A stretch of 64,000 bases of DNA from an uncultured Verrucomicrobiae bacterium (GTDB lineage: Bacteria > Verrucomicrobiota > Verrucomicrobiia > Palsa-1439): the NCBI GenBank assembly GCA_963817685.1, contig CAWFPN010000010.1, positions 450,852 through 514,851 of the forward strand, given 5' to 3'. This document shows, piece by piece, positions 26,601 through 52,202 of the stretch; the stretch's first letter is position 1; each line of letters opens with the position of its first letter. Both the position numbers and the translations under genes were made by a program. The notes below the pieces were generated by a model that was given only the letters and a program-made list of their open reading frames with translations, was not told the DNA's origin and did not search any database.

Positions 26601-28448
26601 CAATCTCGGCGGCCGACAAGTCCTCCGGCTGGACGGCCTTGAGCGCGTCGACGTTCTCCTTGAAGCGTGGGTCGGTGATGCTCGCGGCCTCAGCAATCTC
26701 CAGCTTCTCGCGGACGTTGCCGGACAGGTATCGGTCGTCGGTCTCCCACTCGTTCGATTGCGGATTGAGGAAAATCGCCCCTCTCAGTTCCGGCAGGAAT
26801 TCGTCTTCGGAGCGGCCGAGCAAGGCGCTCATGTAATCGAGGTCAACGCGGCCCTTTTCGTTCAGCGAAACGATCAAGGCTTCCTTTGGCAGTTCAACCG
26901 ACTCGATAGGTTTCTGATACTGAATCGTTCGCTCGCGAAAGATCGCCGTTTTCTTGGCTCGTTTGGTCTCCTCGTCGTAGACCTCCAGTGACAGGAGCAA
27001 CGGCAGGTCGGGATCACCATTGAATACGCGTGTGTTCGCACGGCTTGAAATCGGACCGAATCGTGAGATGAACGAGTCGTATGTCTGATTGAGTCTCTCT
27101 CTCGCCGCGACAATGGCGGCCTCGTCGCTGCCATCGAGTTGACTGCGGAGACATTCACGCACGGCGTCACGAACCCGAATCAGCCGTCGGATTCGCACCT
27201 TGGTTTCCGCCGGCAACCCCGGCAGCGTCTTCAACGAATCCCCCACCCGGACGGCAACATCGTCATGAACCATCACGAAGGCGTTGGGCTTGACGTGGTC
27301 GGGGGCAGGAAACGTCTGGTCGAGGGACGGCGGAGTCACAGCCCGCTTCTGCGCTCGGTAAATATTTTGCGGCAGGTTGCTGAGTGCTTCCGTCAACGCC
27401 TCAGCTAAATCCCGGCCATCGCTGACCAGGGTGGGTTCGTTGTCGCGGTACATGCTGCCCGACAACTCCATCTTGCCGAGCATCATGCGCGGGTGCTGCA
27501 CGAAGTATTCGTTGATGTAGATCGTTTCGCCCTTGGCGTTGCCATGCTCCGCCGTCTCCTTCCACGCCGGACCCGACGGGGTTTCGCCGGGATTCAGTTT
27601 GCGCAACATCACGATGTCGGTGGTGACCTCGGTGTTCGCGTTGCGCTTGAACGCGTTGTTGGGCAGTCGCATTGCGCCAACGAGGTTGGCCCGTTGCGCC
27701 AAGTATTCGCGCAATGCCGAGTCCTCTTTGTCGAGGGTCCCTTTCGAAGTGATGAACAGAATCAGCCCGCCCGGCCGCACCTTCTCCACGGTGGCAGCGA
27801 AGAAGTAATCGTGGATTGAAAACTTGAAGACGTTGAAACGCGGGTCGAACGGCTGGTAGTCCCCAAACGGGATGTTGGAGACCGCCGCGTCGTAGAACCC
27901 GTCGGCCAGCCGAGTCTCTTCGAACGGCTGGTGGCGAATGTCGGCATCTGGATAAAGCGCCTTCGCGATGCGGGCGGTCAGTTGGTCAATCTCAATGCCG
28001 GTGATAGTCGAGTGGGCGTGCATTTCCTCCGGCATCAGCCCGATGAAATGGCCCAGCCCGCAGGCAGGCTCCAAGATGCGCCCATGGTTGAAGCCGAAAC
28101 GCGCGAGGGCGTCGTACATCCCGCGAACGATGACAGGCGCTGTATAGTGGGCGTTGAGTGTCGAGGCGCGGGCAGACGTGTGTTCCTCGTCCGTCAGAAG
28201 TTTGGACAGTTCGACCTGCTCCCTGGACCACTCGCGCGAGTTGACATCGAAGACCTGTGGCAGCCCTCCCCAGCCGACGTACCGCACGAGAACCGCTTTT
28301 TCGTCGTCAGAGGCAGGACGTTTTTCGGCTTCGAGGCGTCGGAGAAGTGTGATCGCCTCGACGTTGGCGCGGAACTTCTGCTTGAGCGACCCCTCCCCCA
28401 GGCGGTCGCGGTCGGTAATGCGGTAGTTGGCTTGGTTACGCGGCGTAC
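23635..28448 (-). CDS. N6-adenine DNA methyltransferase fused to SNF2-family helicase (5' end unresolved)
   Basis: Methylase motifs LEPACGLGHFIG (SAM motif I) and VSNIPFGD (motif IV). Helicase motifs GHVVGAGKTYT (I), LFIDEAQYFKNL (II), GTPISNS (III) and HHLDAPWRPADVEQREGRILRQGN (VI). The listed ORF runs to 28773, but its first ~108 codons overlap a better-coding 88-aa frame. Confidence 0.85.
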
Positions 28449-28715
28449 CTAATTGTTCTCGGCCGGCAGCAAGATGTACCTCTCCCTCACCATTTCCCAA
28501 GCCTGATCCTGGGCCTGCTGCGGCGTGAACCCCTGCTCGGTCAGTTGCCGGCGAATCGCGTCCATTTCGTCCTTGGTCTTCTCCTCGGCCTCCAGAAGCA
28601 TCTGCTGCAGCGTGCTCGTCCGCTCCATTTCCGCCACCATCCGCGACCGATGCACGCGCCAGTGTTGTTCCGCCATCAAGCCGTATTGAGTCAGTGTGCT
28701 CATGTGAGTCTCCAT
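28449..28715 (-). CDS. Small helical protein (88 aa), possibly the displaced N-terminus of the methylase-helicase
   Basis: The translation is protein-like (..YGLMAEQHWRVHRSRMVAEMERTSTLQQMLLEAEEKTKDEMDAIRRQLTEQGFTPQQAQDQAWEMVRERYILLP..). The third-codon position is strongly G/C-biased in this frame. The overlapping frame gives Gly/Arg/Asp-rich low-complexity text. Confidence 0.6.
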   Translation of the reverse strand: METHMSTLTQYGLMAEQHWRVHRSRMVAEMERTSTLQQMLLEAEEKTKDEMDAIRRQLTEQGFTPQQAQDQAWEMVRERYILLPAENN

Positions 28716-28854
28716 TGCCCGAAAACAAATCGAGTTGATCTTGTTGCCGTCCCTTTGACCGTTTGAGAGTCATTGGTTAAATCGCGTGCCACATTTCCCC
28801 TCATCTGAGGGCATTTTGCTACGGGGGGATTTAGCCATGATTCGCTGGTGGAAC

Positions 28855-28872
28855 TGTTCCCAATTGGGAACA
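28855..28872. promoter_or_regulatory. ICE operator palindrome, site 1 (TGTTCCCAATTGGGAACA)
   Basis: Perfect 18-bp palindrome in the non-coding region upstream of the minus-strand 88-aa/methylase/xis/int block. Confidence 0.6.
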
Positions 28873-29350: not shown

Positions 29351-29505
29351 TAGGCGGAGCGAGCACGGTCAAGAAGCGCAAGCGGTGGACCGCAGCCCCG
29401 CGAGGAATATCTTGACGGCGCACAGCGAGCCGTAGAATCGAGGGGCGATTCACGCAAGCCGACTGAAAACACAGCGCGAATGCGCAACGGAACTGAGATT
29501 GCGAA

Positions 29506-29650
29506 AAGCGATGTGGCCGCGAGAAACGACGGCTCGCAGCGGTGACATCGGAGCGCAATCAGATCGCCAACGGCACAGCGAAAGTCTTTGGGGTTTTGCA
29601 GCGGAGCAGCGCGAAGCGGGCAGAGCGAAAAACCACAATATCTTTAGCGG
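29506..29650 (+). repeat. Structured ~145-bp repeat, copy A
   Basis: aagCGATGTGGCCG-[inner hairpin gcgag/ctcgc]-CGGTGACATCG...GAAAGTCTTTGGGGTTTTGCAGCGG...gcgaagcgg.... Aligns with copies B and C. Confidence 0.65.
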
Positions 29651-29916: not shown

Positions 29917-30252
29917 TCATGCGATCCGATTGATAAGGTTGTCGTAGAGCGAGCCATGCGGGTCAATAATGATGAGGGCACCGTATTTGTTTTCGTGCCA
30001 TTTTTTGATGTCCTGACAGATGAGGGTCTCCAGTATTTTCGATTTCCCGGTGCTGGCGGCACCGCAGATGTAGAGATGCGTCAAACGCATTTTGCCCTTG
30101 CGGATCACCTGCATGCCTTTCTGGCCGGCGGTGATGCCGTTGCGGTAGCTTTCCAAGACTTTCTCGGAAACCCAGCGCTCGATGGACGCGGTGTCCGCAC
30201 CGCTGTCGAGCTTCTCTGCGAACTCGACTTCGAACTGTTCAATGTATGACAT
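29917..30252 (-). pseudogene. Truncated P-loop NTPase (HerA/DUF87-like N-terminal fragment)
   Basis: 111 aa with Walker A ..CGAASTGKSK.. and ..ALIIIDPHGSLYDNL... The ORF stops just before the repeat array, far short of a full ATPase domain. Confidence 0.5.
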
Positions 30253-30488: not shown

Positions 30489-30839
30489 TTGATGGCAGAT
30501 CGCACAGTGCGAGATGTAATTGACCAAGCGATTCAAGAGAATCGCTTCGGGGAGCGGCTGCTATACGTTTTCGCATGTGGCATGTTCGGCGTTGGTATCG
30601 CGCTTATCATCCACGGGATGATTGTTGGTTCGACTACTCAAACAGTTGTTGGTGCTATAGGCACTTCAACCTTCATCCCAGCTGTGCATGTGGCGCAAAA
30701 GCTTAGACAGCAAAACATGTCCGTTCGACTACTTGAGGCTGCGTTGATGAGAGCAGACACTGCAAAAGACGCTGCTCAAGCCATTCGCGCTGCATTTACT
30801 GAACTTTTTACAAAAAACGGCGGCGCAGGCAAGAAATGA
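30489..30839 (+). CDS. Small membrane protein (2 predicted TM helices), unknown function
   Basis: 116 aa with hydrophobic segments LLYVFACGMFGVGIALIIHGMIV and TVVGAIGTSTFIPAV. Its stop overlaps the permease ATG (ATGA). Confidence 0.5.
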   Translation: MMADRTVRDVIDQAIQENRFGERLLYVFACGMFGVGIALIIHGMIVGSTTQTVVGAIGTSTFIPAVHVAQKLRQQNMSVRLLEAALMRADTAKDAAQAIRAAFTELFTKNGGAGKK

Positions 30840-33462: not shown

Positions 33463-33610
33463 GAGTGATGTGGCCGAGAGAAGCCATGGCTCGGAGCGGC
33501 GACATCGTTGCGTGGTACGGTCGCCAAAGGCAAAGCCAAAGTCTCTGGGTTTTGACGCGAGGCACCGCACGGAGCGGTTCGAAGCAAAAAACCTCAGAGT
33601 CTTTGGCTGC
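33463..33610 (+). repeat. Structured ~145-bp repeat, copy C
   Basis: gagTGATGTGGCCG-[inner hairpin ccgag/ctcgg]-CGGCGACATCG...CCAAAGTCTCTGGGTTTTGACGCG...ggagcgg...CAGAGTCTTTGG. Same orientation as copies A and B. Confidence 0.65.
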
Positions 33611-33634
33611 CCAACCGACTGGTTTTGGTGGCGG

Positions 33635-34057: not shown

Positions 34058-34652
34058 TCACCAGTTTGGGTTTGAGGTTTCAGGTGTCCCGCTGGATGCG
34101 GGACTTTCCTTTTGCTGGTTGCGGATTTCCGTTTCCAACAAATCGAGACGCTGTTTGGTCAGGTCCAACTCCGTTTTGAGTTGGCGATTCTGCTCGGCAA
34201 CCTGCTTGCTCGCGTCCAAAGCAGTCGAAATCTGCGTAAGCGTATCGTTCAGCCGCCTCCCCTGCTCGATGACGGTCTGCGTGGCTGCCTTTTGCCGGTT
34301 GACCTCCGCGATGACTTCCGGCGTGGTCGGTCCGTCTTTGTAGGCCGGATCGATGATCTGCACTGCCGGCCCCAACGCGACGGTGGCCGGCGCGTTGGGG
34401 CGCAAGTTCCACTTGGCTGTGGTTTCCACACGGTAAACGACGTGGCGTTCGTGCATGACGAACGGCATTGTTCGGGTCAACGTACCGGCCGACGTTGTAC
34501 GCCTTGATGTTTTCGGAGTACCGCACCGACTCGATGTCGTCGCTGGGCAGAGTCGTTCCGGGAACTGGGCGCGACATGTTGAGCAGGCTCAGGTTGCGGT
34601 TCGATGCGCAAGCGGAGAGGAATAGCAGAGGGATCAGGTAGATGGTTTTCAT
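34058..34652 (-). pseudogene. T4SS-associated lipoprotein with coiled-coil C-terminus, apparently frameshifted
   Basis: Lipobox MKTIYLIPLLFLSAC...GRYVDPNN is in one frame (34080..34652 ORF). The sequence continues as MPFVMHERHVVYRVETTAKWNL... in the other (34058..34480 ORF). The junction is near 34465-34485. Confidence 0.55.
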
Positions 34653-35689: not shown

Positions 35690-36591
35690 TCTGACGATTT
35701 CCGTTCTGGCTGCACCAGTTGTAGCGGTGGTGCGTTCGTCTCGATGCGGTCGAGAAGCACAATGAAGTCGTTCTTCAGAGACAGGTCGTTGCGTCCGCCG
35801 TTAGGTGTTCCGGTTATGGCAAAGTAGGCGGGCGCTTCGCCGTTTGGCGGGATCGTGCCGCTAGCGTCGCTGATGGACTGCGGATAGGTGCGTTCACCGA
35901 CGCGGAGCGAAAAGCCGTCTGGCCCGTACTGAATGGGCTGGTTGGTCTTGTTGCGTAGCAGAATCCGAAAGATGAGCGTATCCTCGGGGTCGAACCGGAA
36001 AACCTCGTCGAGTTGAATCTCGTAATCCCTGAAGTCCAGGACTCGCGGGGTCTTGCTGAAGTTGATGTAGTCGACCTGGGCAACCGCGTCCGCGTGGTAC
36101 TCCTTGAGAAGCGGGTAGGCTTTCGCCTTGTCCAAGAGCGCTAGCAGCCGGTCCGGCGTGATGCGGTTTGAGCTGGGGTGGAAGTCGGCCTCGGTATCGG
36201 CGTCGGTGTCGTACTCAAAGATCACGGAGTAGAGCGGTGAGGGACTCTCAACCAATTCGATCGCGTAGGTTTTCTCGTTCCACCGAATGTTCATGTTGGT
36301 CGTGGCCCTTTCGACCAGCGCCCTCACGGACAGGAAGTATGAGCCTTTCGCGTGGGCGATTTGAAACAGTCCGGGGACTTTGGGGTCGCTGGTGACGTTA
36401 GCCGCATCAATTGCCGAGATTGGACCGGGGAAGCTGATGGTTGTCACGCGGCTGCGGGATACCGGGATTGCGTACACTGTGTGTTCGTCCAAGCGATATT
36501 CCGCAATGGGGCTGGCGTCCTTTGCGAAGCTTGACTGAAGGCAAACCAGAAGCATCGACGCGATGTGGATATGTTTAAGGAGACGTTTCAT
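35686..36591 (-). CDS. VirB9/TrbG(CagX)-like T4SS protein
   Basis: Signal peptide, then ..HTVYAIPVSRSRVTTISFPGPISAIDAANV...YFLSVRALVERATTNMNIRWNEKTYAIELVES... Position is between the VirB8-like and VirB10-like genes, with 4-nt overlaps. Confidence 0.55.
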   Translation of the reverse strand: MKRLLKHIHIASMLLVCLQSSFAKDASPIAEYRLDEHTVYAIPVSRSRVTTISFPGPISAIDAANVTSDPKVPGLFQIAHAKGSYFLSVRALVERATTNMNIRWNEKTYAIELVESPSPLYSVIFEYDTDADTEADFHPSSNRITPDRLLALLDKAKAYPLLKEYHADAVAQVDYINFSKTPRVLDFRDYEIQLDEVFRFDPEDTLIFRILLRNKTNQPIQYGPDGFSLRVGERTYPQSISDASGTIPPNGEAPAYFAITGTPNGGRNDLSLKNDFIVLLDRIETNAPPLQLVQPERKSSE

Positions 36592-37315
36592 ATTTGAAAT
36601 CGAACACAGCGGTCGGGAATCGTCCGTTCTGGACCATGTTGGGGTTGCGCTGGAACTTGAAGGCGAGCGTGAACGGGACAGCTTCGGCGAAGGCTCTGTC
36701 CTCGAAAATCCCGGTGCGAACGAGTTGCCCGGTCACCTGGGTCAGGACGAAGTTCTCGCGGGTCTGGAGGATCGTGATCTTGGCAATCTCGGCTTTCTGA
36801 TGCAATTGCTTCGCGGCAAACTCCGCTTCTTCCGAAGCGCGTTCAGCCTTGGCTTTGACCAGAGCATTCTTCAAGAACATCTGCTTCAGCAGGTCATCAT
36901 GGTCAAAGCCTTTGGGGTTGCGCTCCAGGAAGGCGACGGTGGCCAGTGTGCTTTGCTCCGCGTGGAGGTCTTTGGCTTCCTCGAATTTCAGGAGCGGCGC
37001 GACATGGTATGTGCCGGATGGATCAAGGATGACCACGCGCTCGCGTTGTTTGAACGTCTGCACCAGAATGAAACGGTCAACTGCCGCTGCTACAAGAATC
37101 AGTCCGGCAACGATGAACCAGAACCACGCGAGCCGGTCGCGATCGACGAAGATGCGGGTCGGATCGAACTTCTTGCGGGAGAGATTGGGGCGCTCGGTTT
37201 TCGGCACTGGAGTTTCTCGGAGTGTTGTCTCGGTTGCGTTCATGTTCGATGGGTTGTGGGGGTTCTTGGTCTTGCGCAGCAAGGCTTGCACGGCGTTGTC
37301 GCCGCTCACGTCCAT
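36575..37315 (-). CDS. VirB8-like T4SS protein (bitopic, NTF2-like C-domain)
   Basis: Single TM helix LAWFWFIVAGLILVAAAV followed by a ~170-aa periplasmic domain. The start is uncertain: ATG 37315, ATG 37243 or GTG 37366. The call rests on gene order and topology. Confidence 0.45.
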   Translation of the reverse strand: MDVSGDNAVQALLRKTKNPHNPSNMNATETTLRETPVPKTERPNLSRKKFDPTRIFVDRDRLAWFWFIVAGLILVAAAVDRFILVQTFKQRERVVILDPSGTYHVAPLLKFEEAKDLHAEQSTLATVAFLERNPKGFDHDDLLKQMFLKNALVKAKAERASEEAEFAAKQLHQKAEIAKITILQTRENFVLTQVTGQLVRTGIFEDRAFAEAVPFTLAFKFQRNPNMVQNGRFPTAVFDFKYETSP

Positions 37316-37359
37316 CGTGGATGGCGTTGGGTGCAGTCGCGCCGTCACTTTCTCGCTTC

Positions 37360-38382
37360 CTAGCACTCGTGTCCGCGTTGTGCATCTGTCCCAAGGCGGT
37401 GATCATCGAGCCCGTCGGCGAGTACGTGCTGCCGCTGAATGACGAACCAACCAGCGTGGCCCCGGCTGCCGTGAGACCGCCGGCGGTGGCCATCGCCGCA
37501 CCGGCCAGACCGCCACCCGTTCCGAACGTGCCGGCCGCAATGAATCCGCCGGCGATGGCGGTGGTCGCGGCGGTTGTCACGCCGCTGATAAGAGCTGCGC
37601 CGGCCTGAATGCCGTGAGTGATGACGCGTTGAATGACGACGGGCGCGGCGATGGTGCTGAAGATCAACCACACGCCGAGCGCCGCGACCCCGATGAAATT
37701 CTGGAAAGCATACCCGGCCGCCCCGCCGAGGGACTGATTCCAAAGAAAACTCTGGTCGGTCATGAAAGTGATCAACCCTCCGGTGACCAGCGATGCCGCG
37801 CCCCACCCCAGCGGCCAGAGCATGACGCCCAACGAGCGAGAGCAGATAGTTCGTGCCGATTTGGTTCAGGGCGCGGATCGCGAGAAACCCAATGAAGATC
37901 GGCGAGAGCGCGTAGCCCAGGTAGAGGATGAACTTCTGGATCAAGTACGCATAAAAAACGATCACACTGGCCAGCAAGCCGAAGATCCAGAGCAGACCCG
38001 AAATAAGCGCCTCGAAGATGGACGTGCCGGCGTTGAACAGTTTCTGCCACCAACTATTTTGAGATGTGGTGGATTTCTGAACCTGCAACGCCTGGTTGTA
38101 TTGCTGGTACACGTTGCTGGGATCGGCCTGAAGAACATTCGTCACTGTGTCGTTTGTGATCTGGGCAATTTGATTGCCCCAATTGACCAACTGCGTAAGC
38201 ACGATGATGTAAACGATGGTGCGGCCCAGTGCTCGCAGGACGGCCTCGGCGCTGTGGGGACCGGCTATCGTGGACGACACCATGCCGGTGACGAGAAACA
38301 GATACGCCACCGGCATCAGCGCCGACTGCAAGGCAGTGCAGCTCGCAGCAAAATTCGGAAAGAGGGTGTCGAAGTTGTTCAT
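37360..38382 (-). pseudogene. VirB6/TrbL-like polytopic membrane protein, apparently frameshifted
   Basis: Frame A gives MNNFDTLFP...IGTNYLLSLVG, then junk. Frame B (ORF 37077..37832) continues VMLWPLGWGAASLVTGGLITF... with more TM helices and a Gly/Ala/Thr-rich tail. The junction is at a GGG run near 37826-37832. The 3' end is also unresolved. Confidence 0.6.
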
Positions 38383-38385: not shown

Positions 38386-38556
38386 CTATCGCTGAGAGAA
38401 CTGCGGCGACAGTGTGTCGAGATTCAGCGTCTTGTTGGGTTGCGTGGCCGGCGATGTGGATCGCCGTTGATTTGCCTGCCGCGCGGTGAGCACGGCGACA
38501 ACCACCGTGAGAATCACGAAAGCGGCAACGCAGACGATGATCAGTTTCTTAATCAT
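38386..38556 (-). CDS. Small single-TM protein (56 aa)
   Basis: An internal ATG at 38556 overlaps the stop of the upstream gene. TM helix: MIKKLIIVCVAAFVILTVVVAVL. Confidence 0.4.
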   Translation of the reverse strand: MIKKLIIVCVAAFVILTVVVAVLTARQANQRRSTSPATQPNKTLNLDTLSPQFSQR

Positions 38557-39778: not shown

Positions 39779-42504
39779 ACGGGTTCGGCTACCGGGGTTG
39801 GGTTGGCGTGACGGATGATGCCCTCGATGATGTTGCTGCTGCCACGCAGTTCCTTGGCACGCTTTTCGAAGTGTTCGCCGCTGGAACTGCTGCAATACAG
39901 CATTTCGGGTGAGGCGATGTTGTGGACCGTCCCGCAAATCGGCCGGAGCGAATCGATTTGCAGGTAGGTGAACGCGGAATACTTCTGCCCGACTTGGTGA
40001 TCGGGGAGCGGATAGTTCATCAGGGTGTGTTTCGTGATCTCTGGGATGGCGATGTCCTGCGCCATGTCGTCGATGTCCGCGCGGTCGTTCTGGCGCATCA
40101 GGAAGAATTGCCGACTGTTGCCGAACACCGCCGACCTGATGCGGCTCTGTTTGAAGCGCGCGTACTGCTGCACGATCGAGATGTTCCAGCAATTGAACTT
40201 GCGAAGCTGCGCGTAGCTCTCTTTGACGATCTCCTCCCCACCAGGGACGTCGAGGAACCGCGCGACCTCCTCGTACACGTTCCTTTTCCGCAACGCGCGG
40301 GGCAACGTGATGATGTATTTGCGCGCATCGTTGGTGATGAGGAAGCCGGCGGCAGCGCGCAATTCCTTCGCCGAGTCCGGGATGTAGCCCAGTTCGAAAT
40401 GGGCAATCTTGCCGGTCAGGGACAAGTTGGTGACACCGTCGAACAACGCGCCGTAGTTCCCATCGCGGCACCACGGTAGAAGCAGCGTGGCGATTTCGTG
40501 AATCTGGTCGCGCTCGGCACCGGACGCGTCCAGGAACATCAATTCCTGCAACATCCGGTGCGTCGGAAATTCCTCGGGCTTGACATAGGCGAACGCGAGG
40601 TTGCGCACCTCTTTACTCGTGTTGGGGTCTTTTAGGAATTTGAGGACTTCGCCTTCGTCGAACTGTTCGAGGTACGCGCGGGCTTCGTCTTCGTGCTTAG
40701 CCCTCCAGTCGCGCAGGTCGGCGAACGCTTCCAGCGTCGTTGCGCCTGGCGGCATCTTGTCGCGCCGGTAGTGGCTCAAGGTGTAGGCTTGCCGGGCGAT
40801 GGCGAGCAGTTGCTCGGAATGCCTGCGGGACCACTCTTGGAACACGTCTTCGTACAACAGGTTGATGTACTTGGCGATTTGCGCCTGCCGGAGCATCTGC
40901 TTGTCTTCGTGCTGGCTAACGCCAACCATCCGGGCGACCAAAGCGGTCGCAGAGGCAAGATGATCGGGTGTCAGCGGAAGACCTTTCGTGTCAAGGTAGT
41001 TTATGGTGATGTTGCCGTCCGGCTGGATGATGATGGGCTTGGCATCGGGATCAACCGTCTGGACGTAGATGCCGTAGGACAGCCCCTCCTCGATGATGAC
41101 TGTGTAGGCGAAGTAGCCTTCGGTCTGCGTAAGAAGATCGCAAACGGTGACGGATTTCCCGGCACCGCTCATACCGAGCAAGACGGCGTGCTGCGGCGAG
41201 ACGTTCGACGCCTGCCCTGCGAACGTTTTAATGCCGACCAGGTTGCTCGCCGATCCTTCGTAGATCGCCTCGGCGGTGTCCAGGTGACCGGTGAAGGTGG
41301 CGCAGAATGGGAGCATGTCCGCGATGTACCGGCTTTCGCCGTAAAGTTTGCGGTGCTCATAGCGTCCCCATGTCCACCCCGGCCATGTCTCGTAGAACAA
41401 CTGGCGCGACGTGCTCGGCAGCGCGCACTCGAAATACTGAGCGCTGTTCATGCTGTTGATCGCATTCTTGATCGCGCTGGTCTTGACGGACAGGCCCTCT
41501 TTCGTCTTGTCCCAGGTGCGCACGATGAATTGCGCGTGGAACGGGAGTGTATCGCCTCGTGCGAGCGCGGCGATTTTGCGCTGCTTCTTTTCCAGCACGG
41601 TCAGCAGTGACACTTTCTTTTCGCTGGCGTAGTCGCCGGCGATCCGGTCGTGTTCCTTTTCTTCCTTGAGGATCTCCTGGCGAACGGGCAGCGGGTCGAT
41701 GTTGACGGTGATCGTGTAATCGAGGAGCCTGAGATTGGTCAGCCGGCGGACCAGACCGGGATGGGTCATTTTCGGCCAGCGAGTGAGGGCGATGATGGAG
41801 TGGTAGTAGCCGTCCATCCAGAAACCGTAGTCGCGTTGCCCGTTGGCTTCGCCGTGCCAGCAATTCTCCTGGATGGACAATTCCGGGTCGAAGGCGTCGA
41901 AAATGTCGTAATCGAATCGCTCGGCCAGAGACGGATTCAGGAACATCTTGTAGTGCCGGTAATGGTCCGCATCGGTCATCGGGATGACGCGGGCGCCCTG
42001 CCCCGCGAAAATGCTGGCCAGCATCTCGTGGACTTGGGTGAACTCAGCCTGCATCTGCTCAAGCGTCATCTCGTAGAACGCCGCCAGCGCCTTGGCGGTG
42101 CTGGTGGCCTTCGGCGAGGTGTCTATCTTGCGCGAGATGTAGAGGAGGAGACGCTGGCGGCGGAGATTACGGTCCGCCATCGCCTGCCAGTAGCGCATGA
42201 ACCGCTCGTTCCGGCAGCGTTTCGTCCAGACGTTCTGCATCTTCTCGGTTTCCTGCTGGTAACGAAGCAACGGGGCGCGGTAATCCGAGTCGCAGTAAAA
42301 TTGCACCTGCAGCCGGCGCGCGTCGCCGAGCGATGCCAGGAGCAGCGTGATTTGGTCTTGGAACTCGTTCAGGTCGGAGACCTGGGCGTTGTCGAGGTCG
42401 GGTGGTTCAAAAACGAACCCCTTGGAAACGAAGCAGCCTTGCCGCAGGCCGTTGAAGACGAGCAGGTCGCGAACGAAGTAACCGTGTGGGGCGTTATCGA
42501 ACAT
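39775..42504 (-). CDS. virB4: VirB4/TrbE-family T4SS ATPase
   Basis: 909 aa with Walker A ..LLGMSGAGKSVTV... Size and position, immediately after the VirB3-like gene, are typical of the family. Confidence 0.85.
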   Translation of the reverse strand: MFDNAPHGYFVRDLLVFNGLRQGCFVSKGFVFEPPDLDNAQVSDLNEFQDQITLLLASLGDARRLQVQFYCDSDYRAPLLRYQQETEKMQNVWTKRCRNERFMRYWQAMADRNLRRQRLLLYISRKIDTSPKATSTAKALAAFYEMTLEQMQAEFTQVHEMLASIFAGQGARVIPMTDADHYRHYKMFLNPSLAERFDYDIFDAFDPELSIQENCWHGEANGQRDYGFWMDGYYHSIIALTRWPKMTHPGLVRRLTNLRLLDYTITVNIDPLPVRQEILKEEKEHDRIAGDYASEKKVSLLTVLEKKQRKIAALARGDTLPFHAQFIVRTWDKTKEGLSVKTSAIKNAINSMNSAQYFECALPSTSRQLFYETWPGWTWGRYEHRKLYGESRYIADMLPFCATFTGHLDTAEAIYEGSASNLVGIKTFAGQASNVSPQHAVLLGMSGAGKSVTVCDLLTQTEGYFAYTVIIEEGLSYGIYVQTVDPDAKPIIIQPDGNITINYLDTKGLPLTPDHLASATALVARMVGVSQHEDKQMLRQAQIAKYINLLYEDVFQEWSRRHSEQLLAIARQAYTLSHYRRDKMPPGATTLEAFADLRDWRAKHEDEARAYLEQFDEGEVLKFLKDPNTSKEVRNLAFAYVKPEEFPTHRMLQELMFLDASGAERDQIHEIATLLLPWCRDGNYGALFDGVTNLSLTGKIAHFELGYIPDSAKELRAAAGFLITNDARKYIITLPRALRKRNVYEEVARFLDVPGGEEIVKESYAQLRKFNCWNISIVQQYARFKQSRIRSAVFGNSRQFFLMRQNDRADIDDMAQDIAIPEITKHTLMNYPLPDHQVGQKYSAFTYLQIDSLRPICGTVHNIASPEMLYCSSSSGEHFEKRAKELRGSSNIIEGIIRHANPTPVAEPV

Positions 42505-42842
42505 GGTGTCCCTTGAGCGGGTGCGTGGATTGGCGGCATACGTCAGGGCCGAAGCCAGCCCCCTTGATCCATAAATCCAGACAATCCGTGTCGTAGCCGG
42601 GCGGTTTGCCCTGCCGGAAGCCGTAGACGTACACGAGTGTGAGCAGCAGCGGAACCGCCGCGATCATCAACGAGACCATGAAATGACACCTTCGCGACGC
42701 TGAAGGTGATCAACAGCGTCATGACCGATGTGAAGCAGCCGCCGGTCATGTACCAGAACAAATTCCCCTCAAGACCCCATGTCCGGCCTTTGGAGTCGTC
42801 GGCGCTGTTGGTCTCGGTGAGTCGCAGTGTTTGATTGCTCAT
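42494..42842 (-). CDS. VirB3/TrbD-like small membrane protein, split over two frames
   Basis: ORF 42543..42842 gives TM1 (..CFTSVMTLLITFSVAKV..) and ORF 42494..42679 gives TM2 (MVSLMIAAVPLLLTLVYVYGF..). This is either a frameshift near 42677-42690 or two tiny genes; an AAGGTG lies 7 nt before the second ATG. Confidence 0.45.
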
Positions 42843-43141: not shown

Positions 43142-43173
43142 GAGCCAGAGTTGTACTGCGATTAGCTGCGGTT

Positions 43174-43195
43174 GTTGTTCCCAGTTGGGAACAAC
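43174..43195. promoter_or_regulatory. ICE operator palindrome, site 2 (GTTGTTCCC-AGTT-GGGAACAAC)
   Basis: 9-bp perfect arms, 33-54 bp upstream of the pilin ATG. It sits between the divergent T4SS and Clp-like genes. Confidence 0.6.
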
Positions 43196-43320
43196 TTTCA
43201 GCGTGCAATCGGCAAGATGAGAACCCATGACAACAACGGGTTCACCAGCAAGGATCGAATGGAAAACTGCACGAACTGGAATCGCACCTCCGGCAGCGCA
43301 TTCGCGGACAGGATCACGTC

Positions 43321-44151
43321 TTGCCGCGCATTGTTTCCATTCTTCGGCGTGGCGAACTCGGGTTGACTAAGCCCGGCCGTCCACGCGGGAGTTTTCTGTT
43401 TCTCGGCCCGACTGGCGTGGGCAAAACGGAAGTCACACTGGCGTTCACCAGTTTCCTGATGAGCAAAGATCACGCGTTCCGCTTCGACATGTCGGAATAT
43501 CAAACGCAAGAGAGCTTGGGACTGCTGCTTGGCGGCAAGCTTGGTGAACGCGGGACGCTGGGGATGGTTTACGACCGCTCGAGAATAGGGACGCTGCTTT
43601 TCGATGAAATTGAGAAGGCGCATCCCCGCGTACTCGATGTCTTCCTGCAAATCCTGGACGCAGCGCGGGTGACACTGGCCAGCGGCGAGACGCTGGAGTT
43701 AAGTGGCTTCTACGTGGTGTTCACATCGAATATCGGCAGCGCCGACCTGATGAATCTGCAATACTCGACGCCAGCCACGATGGAGCGTCATGTCCTCACG
43801 CGCGCACAGCAATCAATGCGTCCCGAGTTGTACGCCCGTATTACGGAGAAGCTCGTCTTCAACCGTCTGAACTATGATCACCAATTGGAAATAGCGCAAT
43901 TGCTGTTGAATCAGGAATTGGCGTTCCTGAAGGCCAAGGGTCATGAATTGACGCCAGACGCCACGGTTCTCCCCTTTCTTGTTCGTCGCGGATTTCATCC
44001 GAAACTGGGCGCGCGTCCCATGCGCGATGCCGTTGAGAAGCTAATCGGTGACGCTGTGGCCGTGAACCTGCTTACCAGCGGTTCGGGATGTGGCTGGCTG
44101 GTCGTGGACGAGGCAGCGAATTGCTTGTTGATCAGTGGAGGCGGCCATTGA
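43321..44151 (+). CDS. Stand-alone ClpA/ClpB D2-like AAA+ ATPase (start unresolved)
   Basis: Walker A ..GSFLFLGPTGVGKTE.., Walker B ..TLLFDEIEKAHP.. and sensor region ..VVFTSNIGS... The family-typical ..LHELESHLRQRIRGQDHVLPRIV.. is in frame upstream (from 43231) but has no ATG/GTG. An ATG at 43227 is in another frame. Confidence 0.7.
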   Translation: MPRIVSILRRGELGLTKPGRPRGSFLFLGPTGVGKTEVTLAFTSFLMSKDHAFRFDMSEYQTQESLGLLLGGKLGERGTLGMVYDRSRIGTLLFDEIEKAHPRVLDVFLQILDAARVTLASGETLELSGFYVVFTSNIGSADLMNLQYSTPATMERHVLTRAQQSMRPELYARITEKLVFNRLNYDHQLEIAQLLLNQELAFLKAKGHELTPDATVLPFLVRRGFHPKLGARPMRDAVEKLIGDAVAVNLLTSGSGCGWLVVDEAANCLLISGGGH

Positions 44152-44310: not shown

Positions 44311-44353
44311 ATCGGACGATTCGAGGAAAAAATCGGACGATTATCGGACGATT
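44311..44353. repeat. Three direct copies of ATCGGACGATT
   Basis: Copies at 44311-44321, 44332-44342 and 44343-44353. They lie between two convergent genes, and the last copy touches the stop codon of the minus-strand gene. Confidence 0.6.
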
Positions 44354-45888
44354 CAAAGGCCGACCTCTTTGAGCCGGTAAGCTGCGCTACGTCCGCGTCC
44401 TGTCCTGACCAGAATTTGCTGGCCAACAAGCTCCACCAAATCGCGATGGGCGGTATCCTTGACCACATGTAAATTCTGCACACACCAACCGCTCGTGACA
44501 TGCCCTGTCTCAAGGACATGAGCGATTATTTTTTTCTGTCTTTCATTGAGCCGAGCCTCAAGGGCCGGCGTCACTATAAGCCGCGTTTCAGGCACCCGGA
44601 TGCGTTCGAGGTCATCGCCTGGCCCGGGGAAGGTGACTTGGAAATAGCCGGTGTCGCTGCCAAGCAACGGCTGGTCCAATCCGTGATTGAGCATCTGCTC
44701 GCGCATTCGACGAAACCCACTACCTCGCTCTTCGATGCGATGAAAGTAGGACAGGCACTGGGCTAAAACGGGGTTGCGGGAACAGGGTCTATATTTGCCT
44801 TTCCGCAGGCGTTCAAAAGTGATCGGGCTGGGCGGCATGCCGGGACTGGAGACGACGACCCGGTCGGCGAATACTTCGAGCATGATCTTGCGCCCCGCGT
44901 CTTCGTATTGTCGATGTGCTGCGGCATTGACCAAGGCTTCCCGCAATGCCTCGACAGGATATTCGTCCAACCGAACGCGGTTGAGGCCGACCACCTTCAT
45001 CGGGTGTCGCGTGTTGCGGTCGATGAAGGCGATGGTGCGGTCAATAGCCAACGGCATGGGGCCACGAATGTCTTCGTGGTCGCGCGGTTGGCCGTCAGGC
45101 TCCGTAGCCCGGTAAGCGTCGGCGAGGATGCGGCATTGTGGAAAAACGGCTGACGGGTCTTTCGCCAGCAGCACAATGCCAGCTGCGGTGGCGTAGTGCT
45201 CGTTTGACTCCGGGTCGTGCCAGAGGAGGCCGCGCAGCGACGCCCCAGCTAAAAGGTCAGCCGTGGAAATGTCCTCGGGGCTTCTCGCCTCAGCCGTGGC
45301 GATCAACCGGCGAATAACAGTTTGGTCGAGATTCTCCCAAGAGAGGCGTTTCATCGGCTGCGATTCGAACGTGGAGGTAGCCTCGATGGTCTGCTGTGCG
45401 ATTTCGTTCTCGTCTGAGGAAGGGGCGACGCCAAACTGTTCTTTGAGCAGCTTTACCAGGGCTGCTCGGACTTCCTTCTGCAACTCGATGACATTGCCAA
45501 AGCGCTTATACTTGTAGCCATCCGAATCCAATTCCTTCAGCAGGAGGTCCGTGCCCTCCTCACGCTTCATGTGACGCTCACCCTTGATGAAGGCCAGTAC
45601 GGGCAGTTCCCGTTCCTTGGCGCGACGGTATTCAGCATGAGTGATCGAGAGTTCGCCAAGGCGTGCACCGTATTGTACCGCGACAATGAGCAAGTAAACC
45701 TCGCAGGTATCGAGGGCTTTGAGGCATCCCTCCAGTGCCTTGTCAGGCGAGGCGGGTTCAAACTCGTACAGCACAGGAGCACAGTGAACCGCAAGGAAAG
45801 GGTCGGTGTTCAGAAGATTCTGAACGATGACCCGTTCGTCTTCCAATTCCTTTTGGACGGAACTGACGAACACTCTCAGCATGCTCAT
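44353..45888 (-). CDS. DUF4062-like N-domain fused to RecG-C-terminal-like HATPase_c_4 and winged-HTH
   Basis: N-terminus MSMLRVFVSSVQKELEDERVIV... matches the VF(I/V)SS..(D/E)L..ER pattern of DUF4062. The middle reads ..LREALVNAAAHRQYEDAGRKIMLEVFADRVVVSSPGMPP...SRNPVLAQCLSYFHRIEERGSGFRRM.. (COG2865-type). The C-terminal wHTH is ..LNERQKKIIAHVLETGHVTS... The listed ORF start at 45936 is an alternative. Confidence 0.6.
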   Translation of the reverse strand: MSMLRVFVSSVQKELEDERVIVQNLLNTDPFLAVHCAPVLYEFEPASPDKALEGCLKALDTCEVYLLIVAVQYGARLGELSITHAEYRRAKERELPVLAFIKGERHMKREEGTDLLLKELDSDGYKYKRFGNVIELQKEVRAALVKLLKEQFGVAPSSDENEIAQQTIEATSTFESQPMKRLSWENLDQTVIRRLIATAEARSPEDISTADLLAGASLRGLLWHDPESNEHYATAAGIVLLAKDPSAVFPQCRILADAYRATEPDGQPRDHEDIRGPMPLAIDRTIAFIDRNTRHPMKVVGLNRVRLDEYPVEALREALVNAAAHRQYEDAGRKIMLEVFADRVVVSSPGMPPSPITFERLRKGKYRPCSRNPVLAQCLSYFHRIEERGSGFRRMREQMLNHGLDQPLLGSDTGYFQVTFPGPGDDLERIRVPETRLIVTPALEARLNERQKKIIAHVLETGHVTSGWCVQNLHVVKDTAHRDLVELVGQQILVRTGRGRSAAYRLKEVGL

Positions 45889-45972
45889 GCTGTCCTTTGC
45901 TTCATGCCGTTTGGCTCGCATCGGGTTGAGTATCACGAAACCTGACGGGCGAATCCAGTCGATTCCAAGCTC

Positions 45973-47463
45973 TCAAAACCATCGCCTCCTAAACCAGGGC
46001 GAGACTCGGCCATCCGGTTCGATGGGCGGCAGCGTTGTTCTCTTGAAACCTCGTTCGCAGTGGACCAGAACGGCGGTATGCTTCGGCAGTGCGCGGAGAA
46101 TGTGGGGCTTGATCTTGTGTTCCTCGTGCTCGGCGTAGCTGCGATTGGCTTGGCCGCCCGAGACGCCCCACGTCTTCTTGACGACGCGCTTCTTGCCAAG
46201 GAAGTCGGCGCTCTCCTGCGCATCTTCCTCATCGGCGGCTTTGAAGATGATGCGATTACGAAGATTGAGCACAAGCACCTTCGCCTTGTCCTTGCCCAGT
46301 GCCGGCAGGAGCGACGTGGAGGATTGGGCGGCGGCAACAACGGTGGCGTTGGCTTCGCGGATCACGTCAATCGAGCTGTAGTCGCTCATGCCATCTTCGC
46401 TTGAGGTCATGAATCGTTGTGCTTCATCAGCCCAGAGGATCAGCAGATTATTCCGCTGGCGCACTGCTTTGGGCCGGTCAAACCGCCGTAAGACATGGGT
46501 GTAGAAGAGCATTTTCAGAAACGTGTTCACGTACCGGCGCTCGGTCTGGAATTTCTGAGGCATCGCCACACAAATGATCTTGCCCCGGTCAATGTCGCTG
46601 AACTCGAAGGTGTTCTTGTCGGGGCAAAAAACCTGCGCAATATCAGGCGTTAGGAAATTATGAAGGTAGTTGGCGATGGTCTCCTTCACGCCGCCCATCT
46701 GTTCGGGTGGTTGGGTGAGGTAGCGAAACCGGAGATGCTCCACGAGCGCGCGGCGGCGTTCGGTCGGATAGCCGTCTGCCAGCTCCCCTAGTGCGTCGTC
46801 GAGTTCTTCTTCGTTCAACAGGAGTTCGTGGGCGTTCTCCAACGTCACGTCGGCCTGAATTTCGTACAGCGCCTCCAAGGCGTGCGCGATATGCGTCTGC
46901 GCCTGGCTCTTGAAGAATCCCTTGTCGCCCTGCTGGCCAAGACTGGCGGCGGTATCCACGACGAATTTGGCGAACGTGCTGAATGGGACGCTGCTGTCGG
47001 AAGTCAGGTTGTAGGTATGCGTGGGTTTCCAACTGAGGGGCGCATTGTCGGGTCGGACTTGGAGCAGGATCAAATCGTTCTGGCGGTTGAAATACCGGGC
47101 CATCTCCGAGAGCGTTTCCCAATAGATGCCTTTGTCATCAATGCAGAGCCCGCCCCAGTTCGGTTCGTTCTGGAAGACCTGGTACAGGAGTGGTGTGATG
47201 CCGGACCGTGTTTTCCCGGAGCCGGTGTCGCCTGTAATCAGCCAGCCACGACAGAAATCTTCCCGCGTCCACGTCAGCCCCTTCAATCGCACGATCGGAC
47301 GATGGCTCGTGCGAAGAGAAGTGGCAGTCGCGAAGGCGGCAAGAATCCCAAAGGCCCCGGCGAACACCCACGAGAACGGTGGGGCTTGGCTCAGGAGAAA
47401 GTACGCACACGCGGCAAGCGACAAGCCGGCGATTGTGAATCCGAGACACCGTGCTTTGCTCAC
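45973..47463 (-). CDS. virD4: VirD4/TraG-family type IV coupling protein
   Basis: Two N-terminal TM helices and Walker A ..LITGDTGSGKTRSG... Further motifs: ..LILWADEAQRF.. and ..VVAAAQSSTSL... Confidence 0.8.
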   Translation of the reverse strand: MSKARCLGFTIAGLSLAACAYFLLSQAPPFSWVFAGAFGILAAFATATSLRTSHRPIVRLKGLTWTREDFCRGWLITGDTGSGKTRSGITPLLYQVFQNEPNWGGLCIDDKGIYWETLSEMARYFNRQNDLILLQVRPDNAPLSWKPTHTYNLTSDSSVPFSTFAKFVVDTAASLGQQGDKGFFKSQAQTHIAHALEALYEIQADVTLENAHELLLNEEELDDALGELADGYPTERRRALVEHLRFRYLTQPPEQMGGVKETIANYLHNFLTPDIAQVFCPDKNTFEFSDIDRGKIICVAMPQKFQTERRYVNTFLKMLFYTHVLRRFDRPKAVRQRNNLLILWADEAQRFMTSSEDGMSDYSSIDVIREANATVVAAAQSSTSLLPALGKDKAKVLVLNLRNRIIFKAADEEDAQESADFLGKKRVVKKTWGVSGGQANRSYAEHEEHKIKPHILRALPKHTAVLVHCERGFKRTTLPPIEPDGRVSPWFRRRWF

Positions 47464-47822
47464 CGTACTAGCCTCCCGATGAGGACGCCCGCCAGCAGCG
47501 CCAACGCCGCAGTGAATACCAGGGCAAAAACAGGAAAACGGTTCAGGTCGCTCCTGATCTTCGGCACGGCCCGTAACTCCTCAATGATCTCGCCGGCTCG
47601 TCCCGTGAAGTCGCCGCAGAGCCTCTCCAACTGCTCCATCGTGCTACGGAAGTCTTCAAACGACGGGGGTCGTTCCTTCGGTTCGTTCAGTTTGGCGTGG
47701 GTGAAGTAGATTTCCCACAATTCCACAGCGGCCAGCATCGGATCGCCGTCCTGAACACTGTACTTCTTCCGCCATTCCAGAATGGCGTCTTTCAGCGCCT
47801 GTTTTGGGTCGGCTTCGCTCAT
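47460..47822 (-). CDS. Hypothetical protein with C-terminal TM anchor (120 aa)
   Basis: Soluble helical N-domain and C-terminal FPVFALVFTAALALLAGVLIG. It has 4-nt overlaps with both neighbours. Confidence 0.5.
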   Translation of the reverse strand: MSEADPKQALKDAILEWRKKYSVQDGDPMLAAVELWEIYFTHAKLNEPKERPPSFEDFRSTMEQLERLCGDFTGRAGEIIEELRAVPKIRSDLNRFPVFALVFTAALALLAGVLIGRLVR

Positions 47823-48518
47823 GGCTCACTCGGCAAAATGATCTGACGGACGGAGTCGATTTGTTCGTGGAACTGCCGCTGCCAGTTCTTGAGCCGCTGG
47901 CGGTCCATGAGGGAGAATTTCTGGTACTGAATCCCCTGCCCGACCGGCAGATTCGCCTGCTGTAGCAGCGCGACCAACCAGTCATGGAGTTTGGGCATAA
48001 TCATTTCTTTGGCAGCCAGTTCGTTCAGCAATCGTTTCCGCGTCTTGCTGGTGTCGTAAATCGTGAAGTGCTCCGTCAAGGCTTGGTTCTTCACCACCAG
48101 ATAGCGGCAGCGGTTGTTGAATGCCTTCGCGATGAAGCTGATTTGTTCCACGCTGTCGAGATCGTGATTCACCGGCGACACCACCGTCAGGGCGGCGCCC
48201 ATTCTGTTGAGAACATCGAAGACACGTCAACTCGGCAAAGTAGTTCAGGAACACGTCCGTTGAGGCGGCTCGGCAATCCACGACCACGAGGTGGGCGCTT
48301 TCGACGGCCGCAACCAGTTTGTCGAGTTCCCGCAGATTAGCCAGATTCACGAACCGGGCATCCGGGTGAAAACGTTTCAGGGTCGAATTCTCGTTGTCCG
48401 TGTCGATGGCGACATGGGGCATTTGCTGGTCTTTGAGGTACTGAACGAAATTCGCGGTAAAGAAGCTTTTCCCAACTCCACCCTTGCCGTTGAGAACGAG
48501 ATTGATCTGCTTTTGCAT
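47819..48518 (-). pseudogene. parA: ParA/MinD-family ATPase, apparently frameshifted
   Basis: Deviant Walker A ..LNGKGGVGKS.. in ORF 47982..48518 reads well to ..STDVFLNYFAEL. The sequence continues in ORF 47819..48202 as (VFDVLNR)MGAALTVVSPVNHDLDSVEQISF.... The junction is near 48221-48230. Confidence 0.65.
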
Positions 48519-48520
48519 GG

Positions 48521-51696: not shown

Positions 51697-51823
51697 CCGC
51701 GAATTGGCCTTGGACATGGCTGGTGGTGCCTTCGGCGAACGGCGACGGCACGTCCCGATTAGCGTGAAGGCTATCGACAAAACACAAGCGCATCGGACAA
51801 TCAACTTCAGTTTGAGGAAACCT

Positions 51824-52202
51824 ATGAAACGAAACCAAAGTAAGGACGCACCTTCGGGTGACCTGCCGAAAAGGAATTTTCTCTCATGGAACAGAGCCGT
51901 TCAGCCAAGGTGTTTGCGGGTCGAATTGGCTGACGGAACCTTCTTTGTGCTCCCGTATCAACACTCTGGTCTGCGTGAGATTTGAGCCGGGAACCGACGA
52001 CACGATCAACGTCACCATCGCTCTGCACGAGGTGAAGATCGCGGGCAAGAACTTGCGCGAACTCGCCTTGGCGTTTCAAAAGTTCACGGTCGATTGGGTG
52101 AAGGAATTACCACCGCGCTACGCGGCGGCTGCAAATGGCGAGGGCGTCCATATCGCCAGCATCGCGGTCACCAAAATTCAAGCGCACACGACCGTACTAT
52201 GA
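51824..52202 (+). pseudogene. Small ICE protein, frameshifted
   Basis: GAGGAAA precedes the ATG at 51824. Frame 1 reads MKRNQSK...LRVELADGTFFVLPYQH, then stops. Frame 2 (ORF 51858..52202) continues LVCVRFEPGTDDTINVTIALHEVKIAGKNLRELALAFQKFTVDWVKELPPRY... A one-base offset lies at about 51961-51970. Confidence 0.55.

Follow-up and report, generated by a model that had tools for sequence, protein, structure and literature searches.

Fossil or degenerate ICEs are remnants in which transfer genes have been pseudogenised or deleted, and such elements normally combine deletions, nonsense codons, IS insertions and relaxed selection. When indels arise by replication slippage, they take the form of neighbour-base duplications. 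Genes can also appear truncated or split in Nanopore-only MAGs: the consensus errors published for Nanopore are homopolymer indels for the most part, found genome-wide at low coverage (PMC9262707), and the MFD MAGs are metaFlye assemblies made with one Medaka round and without short-read polishing (mmlong2/MFD, PMC12313526). The element described here, carried in a 64-kb stretch of DNA (the window), recalls both situations. As in fossil ICEs, T4SS, partition and relaxase genes are broken in an integrated element whose integrase is intact and, as in Nanopore-only MAGs, private one-base indels truncate or split genes on a very long contig (708 kb). It also differs from both. Unlike in fossil ICEs, the lesions are +1 insertions only and constraint is otherwise equal to that of intact relatives; unlike the published consensus errors, they are mostly non-homopolymeric and are restricted to a mobile element common to many co-occurring variants.

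The element comprises an integrase, a methylase-helicase, a VirB-type T4SS, a coupling protein, a TraL/ParA-like ATPase and a TrwC relaxase, and is probably a normal, functional ICE of a soil Verrucomicrobium. It resembles VirB-type (MPF-T-like) elements with a MOBF/TrwC relaxase by its TrwC relaxase-helicase and VirD4-type coupling protein, by its homologues of VirB2, B3, B4, B5, B6, B9 and B10, and by its TraL/ParA-like ATPase and tyrosine integrase. It departs from them in that its sequences are very divergent, most matches lying under curated cut-offs, in that no VirB11 or VirB1 homologue was found, and in that it carries a ClpB-D2-like AAA gene, a giant methylase-helicase with a nested tnpV and a DUF4062 cargo gene. 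Its features are the following.

22096..23310, minus strand: tyrosine integrase, intact, an uninterrupted 404-aa ORF (Pfam Phage_integrase, E 2.2e-14)
23635..28773, minus strand: methylase-helicase, 1712 aa, intact; Methyltransferase, ResIII and Helicase_C domains in the ORF translation
28452..28715, minus strand: TnpV-family gene, 88 aa, nested out of frame in the 5′ part of the methylase-helicase gene
34058..34652, minus strand: T4SS lipoprotein gene with an extra C at 34463; repaired product of 197 aa, stop-free
34649-35689, minus strand: TrbI/VirB10-like gene, intact (Pfam; full-length tblastn match to L012 and L022 proteins)
35686-36591, minus strand: CagX/VirB9-like gene, intact (Pfam; full-length tblastn match to L012 and L022 proteins)
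36575..37243, minus strand: VirB8-position gene, 222 aa, intact (position and synteny)
37246..38382, minus strand: VirB6/TrbL gene with three frame breaks (Pfam TrbL)
38549-39361, minus strand: VirB5-like gene, intact (Pfam; full-length matches to relatives)
39365-39772, minus strand: small lipoprotein gene, intact (full-length matches to relatives)
39775-42504, minus strand: VirB4/TraC ATPase gene, intact (Pfam; full-length matches to relatives)
42494..42842, minus strand: VirB3-like membrane protein gene with an extra base at 42679-42681; repaired product of 115 aa
42839..43228, minus strand: TrbC/VirB2 pilin gene, intact (Pfam TrbC; match to L012 and L022)
43226..44151, plus strand: ClpB-D2-like AAA+ gene with an extra C at 43256 (Pfam AAA_2, ClpB_D2-small)
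44353..45936, minus strand: cargo gene, intact (Pfam DUF4062, HATPase_c_4 and HTH)
45973..47463, minus strand: type IV coupling protein gene, intact (Pfam TrwB_AAD_bind, TraG-D_C)
47819..48518, minus strand: ParA/TraL-like ATPase gene with an extra A at 48224; repaired protein of 232 aa
49048..51815, plus strand: TrwC-type relaxase-helicase gene, body intact and tail broken (Pfam TrwC, 4.9e-83; AAA_30)
51824..52202, plus strand: conserved 125-aa gene of unknown function with an extra C at 51964

The Phage_integrase match (22096-23310) places an integrase at one end of the element, of which this gene is the probable left end. Relaxase, coupling protein and VirB4-class ATPase are all recognised by profiles (TrwC 4.9e-83; TrwB_AAD_bind 4.6e-15; TraC_F_IV/P-loop_TraG in a 909-aa ORF), and equivalents of VirB2, 3, 5, 6, 8, 9 and 10 make up the mating-pair-formation genes, with matches to TrbC, TrbL, T4SS/DUF4141, CagX and TrbI and with the VirB3 and VirB8 roles assigned solely from position and synteny. 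No direct repeat of at least 10 nt that could serve as attL/attR is shared by 21.85-22.12 kb and 53-54 kb, and no tRNA gene was found as an insertion site. Homologues of the cargo gene at ~70-87% identity occur in many phyla, archaea included. A further broken gene was considered in 28.8-30.9 kb; six-frame reading gave no frameshift series there, just non-coding repeats and a P-loop fragment of 111 aa that is truncated.

A preliminary description of this DNA had reported eight frameshift junctions in the element. Seven of them are found where it placed them, and at each of these, as had been proposed, deleting one base joins two ORF pieces in different frames into a full-length protein typical of its family; the eighth, at 28449, is not a lesion. 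Three more window-private frame breaks (37247, ~37331-37345 and 51789) bring the number to ten. The extra bases were tested against up to 13 related loci and against contigs from four metagenome runs (X1-X4). All ten lesions are private to the window, missing from the orthologues in related elements, and each is a net +1 (one extra base, or equal to +1 modulo 3). The repaired genes contain no in-frame stops.

In the T4SS lipoprotein gene, both pieces, which lie in frames -3 and -1, align to a single 212-aa stretch of L022 and L004, and the extra C at 34463 is missing from 6/6 aligned relatives and from X4 contigs. The VirB6 gene is broken three times, and the 381-aa protein of L012 matches its region in three frames (38385-37828, 37832-37335 and 37327-37247). 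One break is an extra C that turns CC into a CCC run at 37828-37834 (absent in 10/10 relatives), another at ~37331-37345 is a net -5 or -2 with respect to relatives, equal to +1 modulo 3 (supported at 8/9 loci), and the last is an extra C at 37247, 9 nt 5′ of the VirB6 stop (supported by 6-9 loci). The VirB6 extra bases are missing from X1 and X4 contigs, and removing three bases yields a stop-free product that ends with NPHNPST before its stop, exactly as in relatives. In the latter, the VirB8-position and VirB6 genes meet in an ATGA overlap; in the window, the extra base at 37247 joins the VirB8-position gene and the VirB6 tail in a single frame.

The VirB3-like region is matched in two frames by a 120-aa protein of L022, and its extra base is missing from 12/13 relatives and from a 99.5%-identical X3 contig. 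In the ClpB-D2-like gene the extra C at 43256, missing from 10/12 relatives and from an X3 contig, lies ten codons past the ATG at 43226; the 305-aa proteins of relatives match this gene only from residue 12, and the repaired reading begins MTTTGSPARMNGK. The ParA/TraL-like region is matched in two frames by a 238-aa protein of L033. Once repaired, its 232-aa protein aligns end to end with NCBIfam TraL (residues 4-224 on profile positions 3-239 of 241), and the extra A at 48224 is missing from 6/6 relatives and from X1, X2 and X4 contigs. The relaxase tail holds an extra A at 51641 and an extra C at 51789, 24 nt 5′ of the stop, both missing from 6/6 relatives and the former also from X1 and X4 contigs; the repaired tail ends with GIGQSTSV before its stop, as in relatives. 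Finally, the extra C at 51964 is missing from 6/6 relatives and from X1, X2 and X4 contigs, and the repaired product of this 125-aa gene is colinear with those of relatives. Further 'private deletions' indicated by MAFFT at 38563 and 43812, and insertions of 2+4 nt at 36183 and 36191, were traced to the alignment itself or to a 12-nt in-frame insertion.

The methylase-helicase had been described as lacking its own start codon. In fact, ORF 23635-28773 owns an ATG, at 28773, and runs in frame through LGTPRNQANYRITDRD, and no window-private indel was seen at 28449 against L004, L027 and L011. The 88-aa ORF there belongs to the TnpV family, which has more than 1000 homologues, mostly free-standing and of ~83-88 aa, many of them with PF14198. 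Substitutions in the nested tnpV are concentrated at third codon positions (64, against 33 and 23 at the other two), and the same nesting is found in six relatives from three phyla (L004, L027, L011, L141, L142 and L143). Thus the possibility raised earlier, that homologues would share the split layout, holds at this site but not at the other junctions. Programmed frameshifting was also considered at this site; no conserved slippery heptamer occurs at the tnpV stop in four aligned relatives.

All ten lesions fall within 34.4-52.0 kb, and the long ORFs of the window (8406, 7080, 4998, 3327 and 5139 nt, ~30 kb of long ORFs) proved to be uninterrupted. With 0.57 lesions per kb, ~30 kb would be free of them with a probability of 4e-8, and the chance that ten uniformly placed events span at most 17.5 kb of the 64-kb window is 5e-5; both figures bear out the earlier proposal that the lesions are element-specific and do not reflect a uniform error rate. 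Tested inside the element alone (22.1-53.0 kb), the concentration is marginal (P = 0.03), and clustering of the ten sites inside their own span is not significant (coefficient of variation 1.0, P = 0.24). The ten insertion sites show no evident common motif, for methylation or otherwise.

The spectrum of the lesions is peculiar. Ten +1 events and no deletions were counted (P at most 1e-3 even with half of natural indels taken as insertions), and nonsense codons and IS insertions were likewise not seen. The ratio of private nonsynonymous to synonymous counts is 0.75 in the window and 0.70-0.95 in five relatives that each have at most one private coding frameshift; neither relaxed selection nor accompanying nonsense codons or deletions were observed. 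Only one of nine placeable insertions duplicates the adjoining base, and the spectrum is not of the slippage type, with its homopolymer or neighbour duplications and deletion bias. At 7/9 sites relatives carry the extra base as an allele of the adjacent column (P = 0.001 against a null rate of 0.235, in an exploratory test devised after the sites had been inspected), which is consistent with errors at positions that differ between co-occurring variants. Among relatives, L033 is truly deleted, with its T4SS gone and a 59-aa VirB4 remnant left.

Among the metagenome runs searched, the strain is present in X3 only, a soil metagenome (word share 0.19-0.22). Over 1-20 kb, 24/27 X3 contigs are at least 99% identical to the window, with 5 substitutions and zero indels; mean depth is ~0.82 in flank and element alike, and contigs over the cargo gene are 100% identical. 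X3 contigs across 42681 and 43256 are without the extra base, and a third contig, which spans 51641, has one base fewer than the window, so that at 2-3/10 junctions, covered at a depth of 2-4x, the indels are private to one assembly and missing from independent same-strain data; because the spanning contigs carry 1-8 mismatches, they could stem from another allele of the element. Soil and peat metagenomes are rich in variants related to this element, with depths reaching ~180, and multiple copies occur in several MAGs, one of which contains both L001 and L027.

The kind of indel also tracks the sequencing platform. Private 1-nt coding indels occur at all six loci of this element family from Nanopore-only MFD MAGs (1-10 each) but at 0/8 other loci, apparently short-read as judged from contig and MAG names (Fisher's exact P ~3e-4). 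The length of the window's soil contig (708,068 bp) suggests a long-read assembly, and we infer long reads as its sequencing platform.

Altogether, our best reading, and a probable one, is that the ten frame breaks are long-read consensus artefacts arising where several variants of the element were mixed. Many close copies coexist in such soils, and reads from these variants would pile onto the element stretch when the consensus is built or polished. At a position where a substitution separates two variants, both alleles may be kept side by side, which would appear as a one-base insertion; the unique flanks would receive the strain's own reads only and would come out clean. This allele doubling is a mechanism that we propose ourselves, rather than a documented result taken from the literature. 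Consensus errors in a strain-mixed region had been named earlier as what would undo the idea of decay, and the data now go part of the way towards them. Several observations speak against the artefact reading. The methylase-helicase (5.1 kb), VirB4 (2.7 kb) and coupling protein (1.5 kb) genes are also shared with related elements, yet are free of insertions. In addition, the indels of the Nanopore-derived relatives are a mixture of insertions and deletions, unlike those of the window, and the published errors are mainly homopolymeric whereas those of the window are not.

The earlier description took the element for a decaying fossil, a view that we do not favour: long-term decay does not fit, since deletions, nonsense codons and relaxed selection are all missing, neighbour duplications are few, the inserted bases mostly coincide with relatives' alleles, same-strain contigs lack the extra base at the junctions covered, and platforms contrast with one another. 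A genuine but very recent inactivation, in which an ICE copy without selection for transfer gained ten real one-base insertions (for example because other copies supply the functions or the host has tamed the element), is a more serious contender, one that we nonetheless hold to be rather unlikely. The lesions do stand in the deposited sequence, they are element-specific and strike essential genes (VirB6 three times, VirB3 and the relaxase tail), structural decay is real elsewhere in the family, as in L033, and genomes with several copies, such as the MAG that holds L001 and L027, offer a setting in which one copy could decay. Moreover, the flanks are error-free, and therefore the assembly is not generally poor. 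This reading has to accommodate ten insertions against zero deletions, nonsense codons and IS insertions without relaxed selection, inserted bases that do not copy their neighbours as slippage would, and a 7/9 match to adjacent-column alleles for which it offers no biological rationale. It also sits badly with the X3 contigs, which lack the insertion at the covered junctions, and with the apparently short-read relatives, of which 0/8 show a private coding frameshift.

An insertion-biased mutational process aimed at the conjugation module, for instance repeated nuclease cuts (restriction, CRISPR or other defence) repaired by end joining with the addition of a single untemplated base, would account for lesions that are insertion-only, mostly non-duplicating and limited to 17.5 kb of a mobile element. 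We consider it very improbable, as end joining usually leaves deletions too and none are seen, the ten sites have no evident motif in common, no relative bears any trace of such a process, and the extra bases are missing from same-strain contigs. It is even harder to believe that the split genes function as separate genes or through programmed frameshifting: a two-ORF layout is kept in six relatives at the tnpV site only, every relative has one uninterrupted gene at the seven confirmed junctions and the three added sites, these sites are not slippery, and VirB6 would need three shifts. Least credible of all is a uniformly error-prone assembly with the lesions concentrated in the element by chance; the bare existence of indels speaks for it and nothing more, and it is contradicted by both probabilities calculated above and by X3 contigs that show no indel over the flank.

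The consequences depend on which reading holds. As was claimed earlier, VirB6, the ParA-like gene and the relaxase tail are frame-broken in the sequence; loss of function follows only if the lesions are real. In that case they would disable VirB6, VirB3, the TraL/ParA-like ATPase and the relaxase tail, and the window would catch an ICE just as domestication begins, its lesions oddly limited to insertions. If a process that only inserts bases were at work, transfer would be silenced, with the integrase, the methylase-helicase and the cargo gene spared. If, as we think probable, the lesions are artefacts, errors can concentrate in mobile elements common to many co-occurring strains even where the rest of a long-read MAG is clean, and counts of fossil or pseudogenised ICEs, as well as mobility predictions, would be inflated when drawn from such assemblies. 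The signature of allele doubling, a +1 insertion whose base is a neighbouring-column allele in relatives, could then serve as a reference-free flag for such errors.

The window has a G+C content of ~58% and carries an integrated conjugative element (ICE) that spans approximately 22 to 53 kb. Its main genes, which include those of a VirB-type type IV secretion system (T4SS) on the minus strand, are as follows:

22096-23310, tyrosine integrase
23635-28773, minus strand, methylase-helicase (1712 aa)
34649-35689, minus strand, TrbI/VirB10
35686-36591, minus strand, CagX/VirB9
37246-38382, minus strand, TrbL/VirB6
38549-39361, minus strand, VirB5-like gene
39775-42504, minus strand, VirB4
42839-43228, minus strand, TrbC/VirB2 pilin
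43226-44151, ClpB-D2-like AAA gene
44353-45936, DUF4062/HATPase_c_4 cargo gene
45973-47463, coupling protein
47819-48518, ParA/TraL-like ATPase
from 49048, TrwC relaxase-helicase

In the flanks lie genes for giant PKD, RHS and Tc-toxin-like proteins, and two large toxin-type genes border the element (16882-21879 and 54891-61970): one product has RHS repeats and a C39 peptidase domain, the other is an SpvB/TcdB/RHS protein. Neither a tRNA gene nor an attachment repeat was found at the two borders. Many soil and peat Verrucomicrobia MAGs carry related elements, several of them in more than one copy, and VirB4 of the closest ones is 89-96% identical in amino acids to that of the window.

The preliminary description proposed that at least eight genes of this element are split by single-base frameshifts. 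At seven of the eight junctions listed, two ORF pieces in different frames indeed match a single uninterrupted protein in the relatives. Nucleotide alignments with these intact homologues show at each one extra base in the window that the relatives lack, and deleting a single base yields a full-length, stop-free product in every case:

34463, lipoprotein
37828-37834, VirB6
42679-42681, VirB3-like
43256, ClpB-like, ten codons past the ATG
48224, ParA/TraL-like
51641, relaxase
51964, conserved 125-aa gene

Independent evidence comes from four unrelated soil and peat metagenomes, whose contigs have one base fewer at the same places. Three further breaks of the same kind were found. That at 37247 lies 9 nt ahead of the VirB6 stop, which is lost, so that the VirB6 frame is joined to the next gene; that at ~37331-37345 falls in a length-variable part of VirB6, where the window differs from the relatives by a net -5 or -2, equivalent to +1 modulo 3; that at 51789 is 24 nt ahead of the relaxase stop. 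The earlier observation is thus largely correct, with the count raised from seven lesions to ten, VirB6 having three of the breaks and the relaxase tail two. Unlike these +1 events, a window-private 12-nt insertion in a GTCGG-rich repetitive stretch of the VirB9-like gene (36164-36196) preserves the reading frame.

The eighth junction, where the methylase-helicase was thought to lack its own start, is a conserved nested-gene layout and not a lesion. The 1712-aa ORF has an ATG at 28773 and is in frame through the residues taken to be its first conserved ones, and comparison with the relatives revealed no window-private indel there. The 88-aa ORF (28452-28715, minus strand) is a genuine TnpV-family gene with more than 1000 homologues, most of which stand alone as proteins of ~83-88 aa, and lies wholly within the 5′ part of the methylase-helicase ORF in another frame. 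The same nesting occurs in the related loci L027 and L011, one Planctomycetota MAG and one 'Aquilonibacter' MAG; in each case an ATG lies upstream and the N-terminus has a conserved '...QLDLF'. L004 has the same layout, but with a one-base indel near the methylase-helicase ATG. Altogether, a nested TnpV gene of 84-88 aa is present in the window and in L004, L027, L011, L141, L142 and L143. The elements come from Verrucomicrobiota, Planctomycetota and 'Aquilonibacter' MAGs, and most have the long ORF open across tnpV, with the upstream ATG and the '...QLDLF' N-terminus. Substitutions number 64 at third positions of the TnpV frame against 33 and 23 at the others, and selection acts on this frame. 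Given this excess, the segment of the large protein that tnpV overlaps resembles an overprinted linker. The methylase domain has no start codon of its own 3′ of the tnpV stop, and the two genes may form an overprinted pair. Gene callers shorten the large gene.

The cargo protein (DUF4062, HATPase_c_4 and HTH domains) matches pAgo-associated (Aga SIR2-PNTD) profiles in PADLOC (2.4e-12) and has homologues of ~70-87% identity in very distant lineages, including Deltaproteobacteria MAGs and, in Archaea, Methanoculleus, Methanoperedens and Methanosarcinales. The same gene is found in elements from JGI metagenomes and MAGs, and it resembles a defence-type gene that is widely exchanged. Weak PADLOC matches to methylation-associated defence (MADS) components concern a 108-aa ORF (23307-23633; mad1, 1.8e-9), residues 181-393 of the methylase-helicase (23635-28773; mad2, 7.7e-14) and a truncated 111-aa P-loop fragment (29917-30252; mad8, 6.5e-5). 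A repeat of ~110-160 nt (29487-29597 and 33468-33629), matching one non-coding stretch of the related locus L022, flanks a 3.9-kb segment with a 698-aa permease-like ORF (30836-32932) and the truncated P-loop fragment. L004 has ~2.1 kb of other sequence in its place, and the segment may reflect an exchange of cargo between the repeats.

The ten events are confined to 17.5 kb, and the ORFs of 8.4, 7.1, 5.0, 3.3 and 5.1 kb are intact. At the observed rate, the chance of zero events in ~30 kb is 4e-8, and that of so narrow a span within 64 kb is 5e-5. The lesions are therefore element-specific, as first proposed, and do not reflect a uniform error rate. When just the element is considered, the clustering is no more than marginal (P = 0.03); the integrase and methylase-helicase are free of lesions.

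The fossil ICE first suggested is not the best-supported reading, and several independent lines speak against ordinary decay. All ten lesions are insertions, with no deletion, and no nonsense codon, IS insertion or larger deletion was seen in the window's element. The ratio of private nonsynonymous to synonymous counts is 0.75, compared with 0.70-0.95 in five relatives having at most one private coding frameshift, a comparison that gives no trace of relaxed selection. Slippage is expected to produce duplications; of the nine placeable insertions, just one duplicates its neighbouring base. In relatives, the extra base is found as an allele of the adjacent column at seven of nine sites (null rate 0.235; P = 0.001, exploratory test), as in GAC-AC-GTC against GAC-C-GTC or GAC-A-GCT, and ACA-CT-CTGG against ACA-T-CTGG or ACA-C-CTAG. 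A consensus built from two variants that retained both alleles of a substitution would gain one such base. Hence, we consider it probable that the ten lesions are a consensus artefact, on a sequencing platform that we infer: the 708-kb contig points to a long-read assembly. Among relatives, every one of six loci from Nanopore-only MFD MAGs has private 1-nt coding indels (1-10 each), against none of eight others, assigned by contig and MAG names to SPRUCE, Stordalen, SMAG or JGI assemblies, which are apparently short-read. MFD MAGs are metaFlye assemblies with one Medaka polish (PMC12313526), and frameshifting indels are known to persist in Nanopore MAGs under ~40-fold coverage (PMC9262707).

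A genuine, very recent inactivation is a lesser possibility, to which we give roughly one chance in four, and all other readings together seem improbable. One metagenome run, X3, contains the same strain and also speaks against ordinary decay. Across 1-20 kb of the window, 24 of its 27 contigs reach 99% identity or more, the differences being five substitutions and no indels; its mean depth is ~0.82 in the element as in the flank. Aligned with the element, X3 differs by just two indels, at 42681 and 43256, where it lacks the extra base, and a third contig, across 51641, has one base fewer than the window. However, coverage in X3 is low, and the contigs that span the junctions have 1-8 mismatches and thus may represent a sister allele. 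Also against an artefact, the indels of the Nanopore relatives go both ways, whereas those of the window are insertions only, and shared genes such as VirB4 and the methylase-helicase are clean.

Genuine structural decay does exist inside this ICE family. In L033 (MAG MFD09222.bin.2.60), the entire T4SS module is deleted and a 59-aa VirB4 remnant runs straight into the 3′ half of the methylase-helicase, at a junction adjoining the T4CP, ParA-like and relaxase genes. The Nanopore MAG MFD03346.bin.1.96 has two copies, L001, nearly clean, and L027, whose T4SS region has 14 private non-3n indels (ten being 1-nt events in coding sequence). L027 also has ~14 further 1-nt indels in the methylase-helicase and a raised private nonsynonymous/synonymous ratio of 1.29. 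L027 is either a real fossil or a badly polished copy.

As an assembly artefact, which they most likely are, the window's lesions would be of methodological interest only. If they are real, they affect VirB6 and VirB3, both essential channel components, as well as the TraL-like ATPase and the C-terminus of the relaxase. This copy of the element could then not self-transfer, while its integrase, coupling protein, VirB4 and relaxase core would still be intact.
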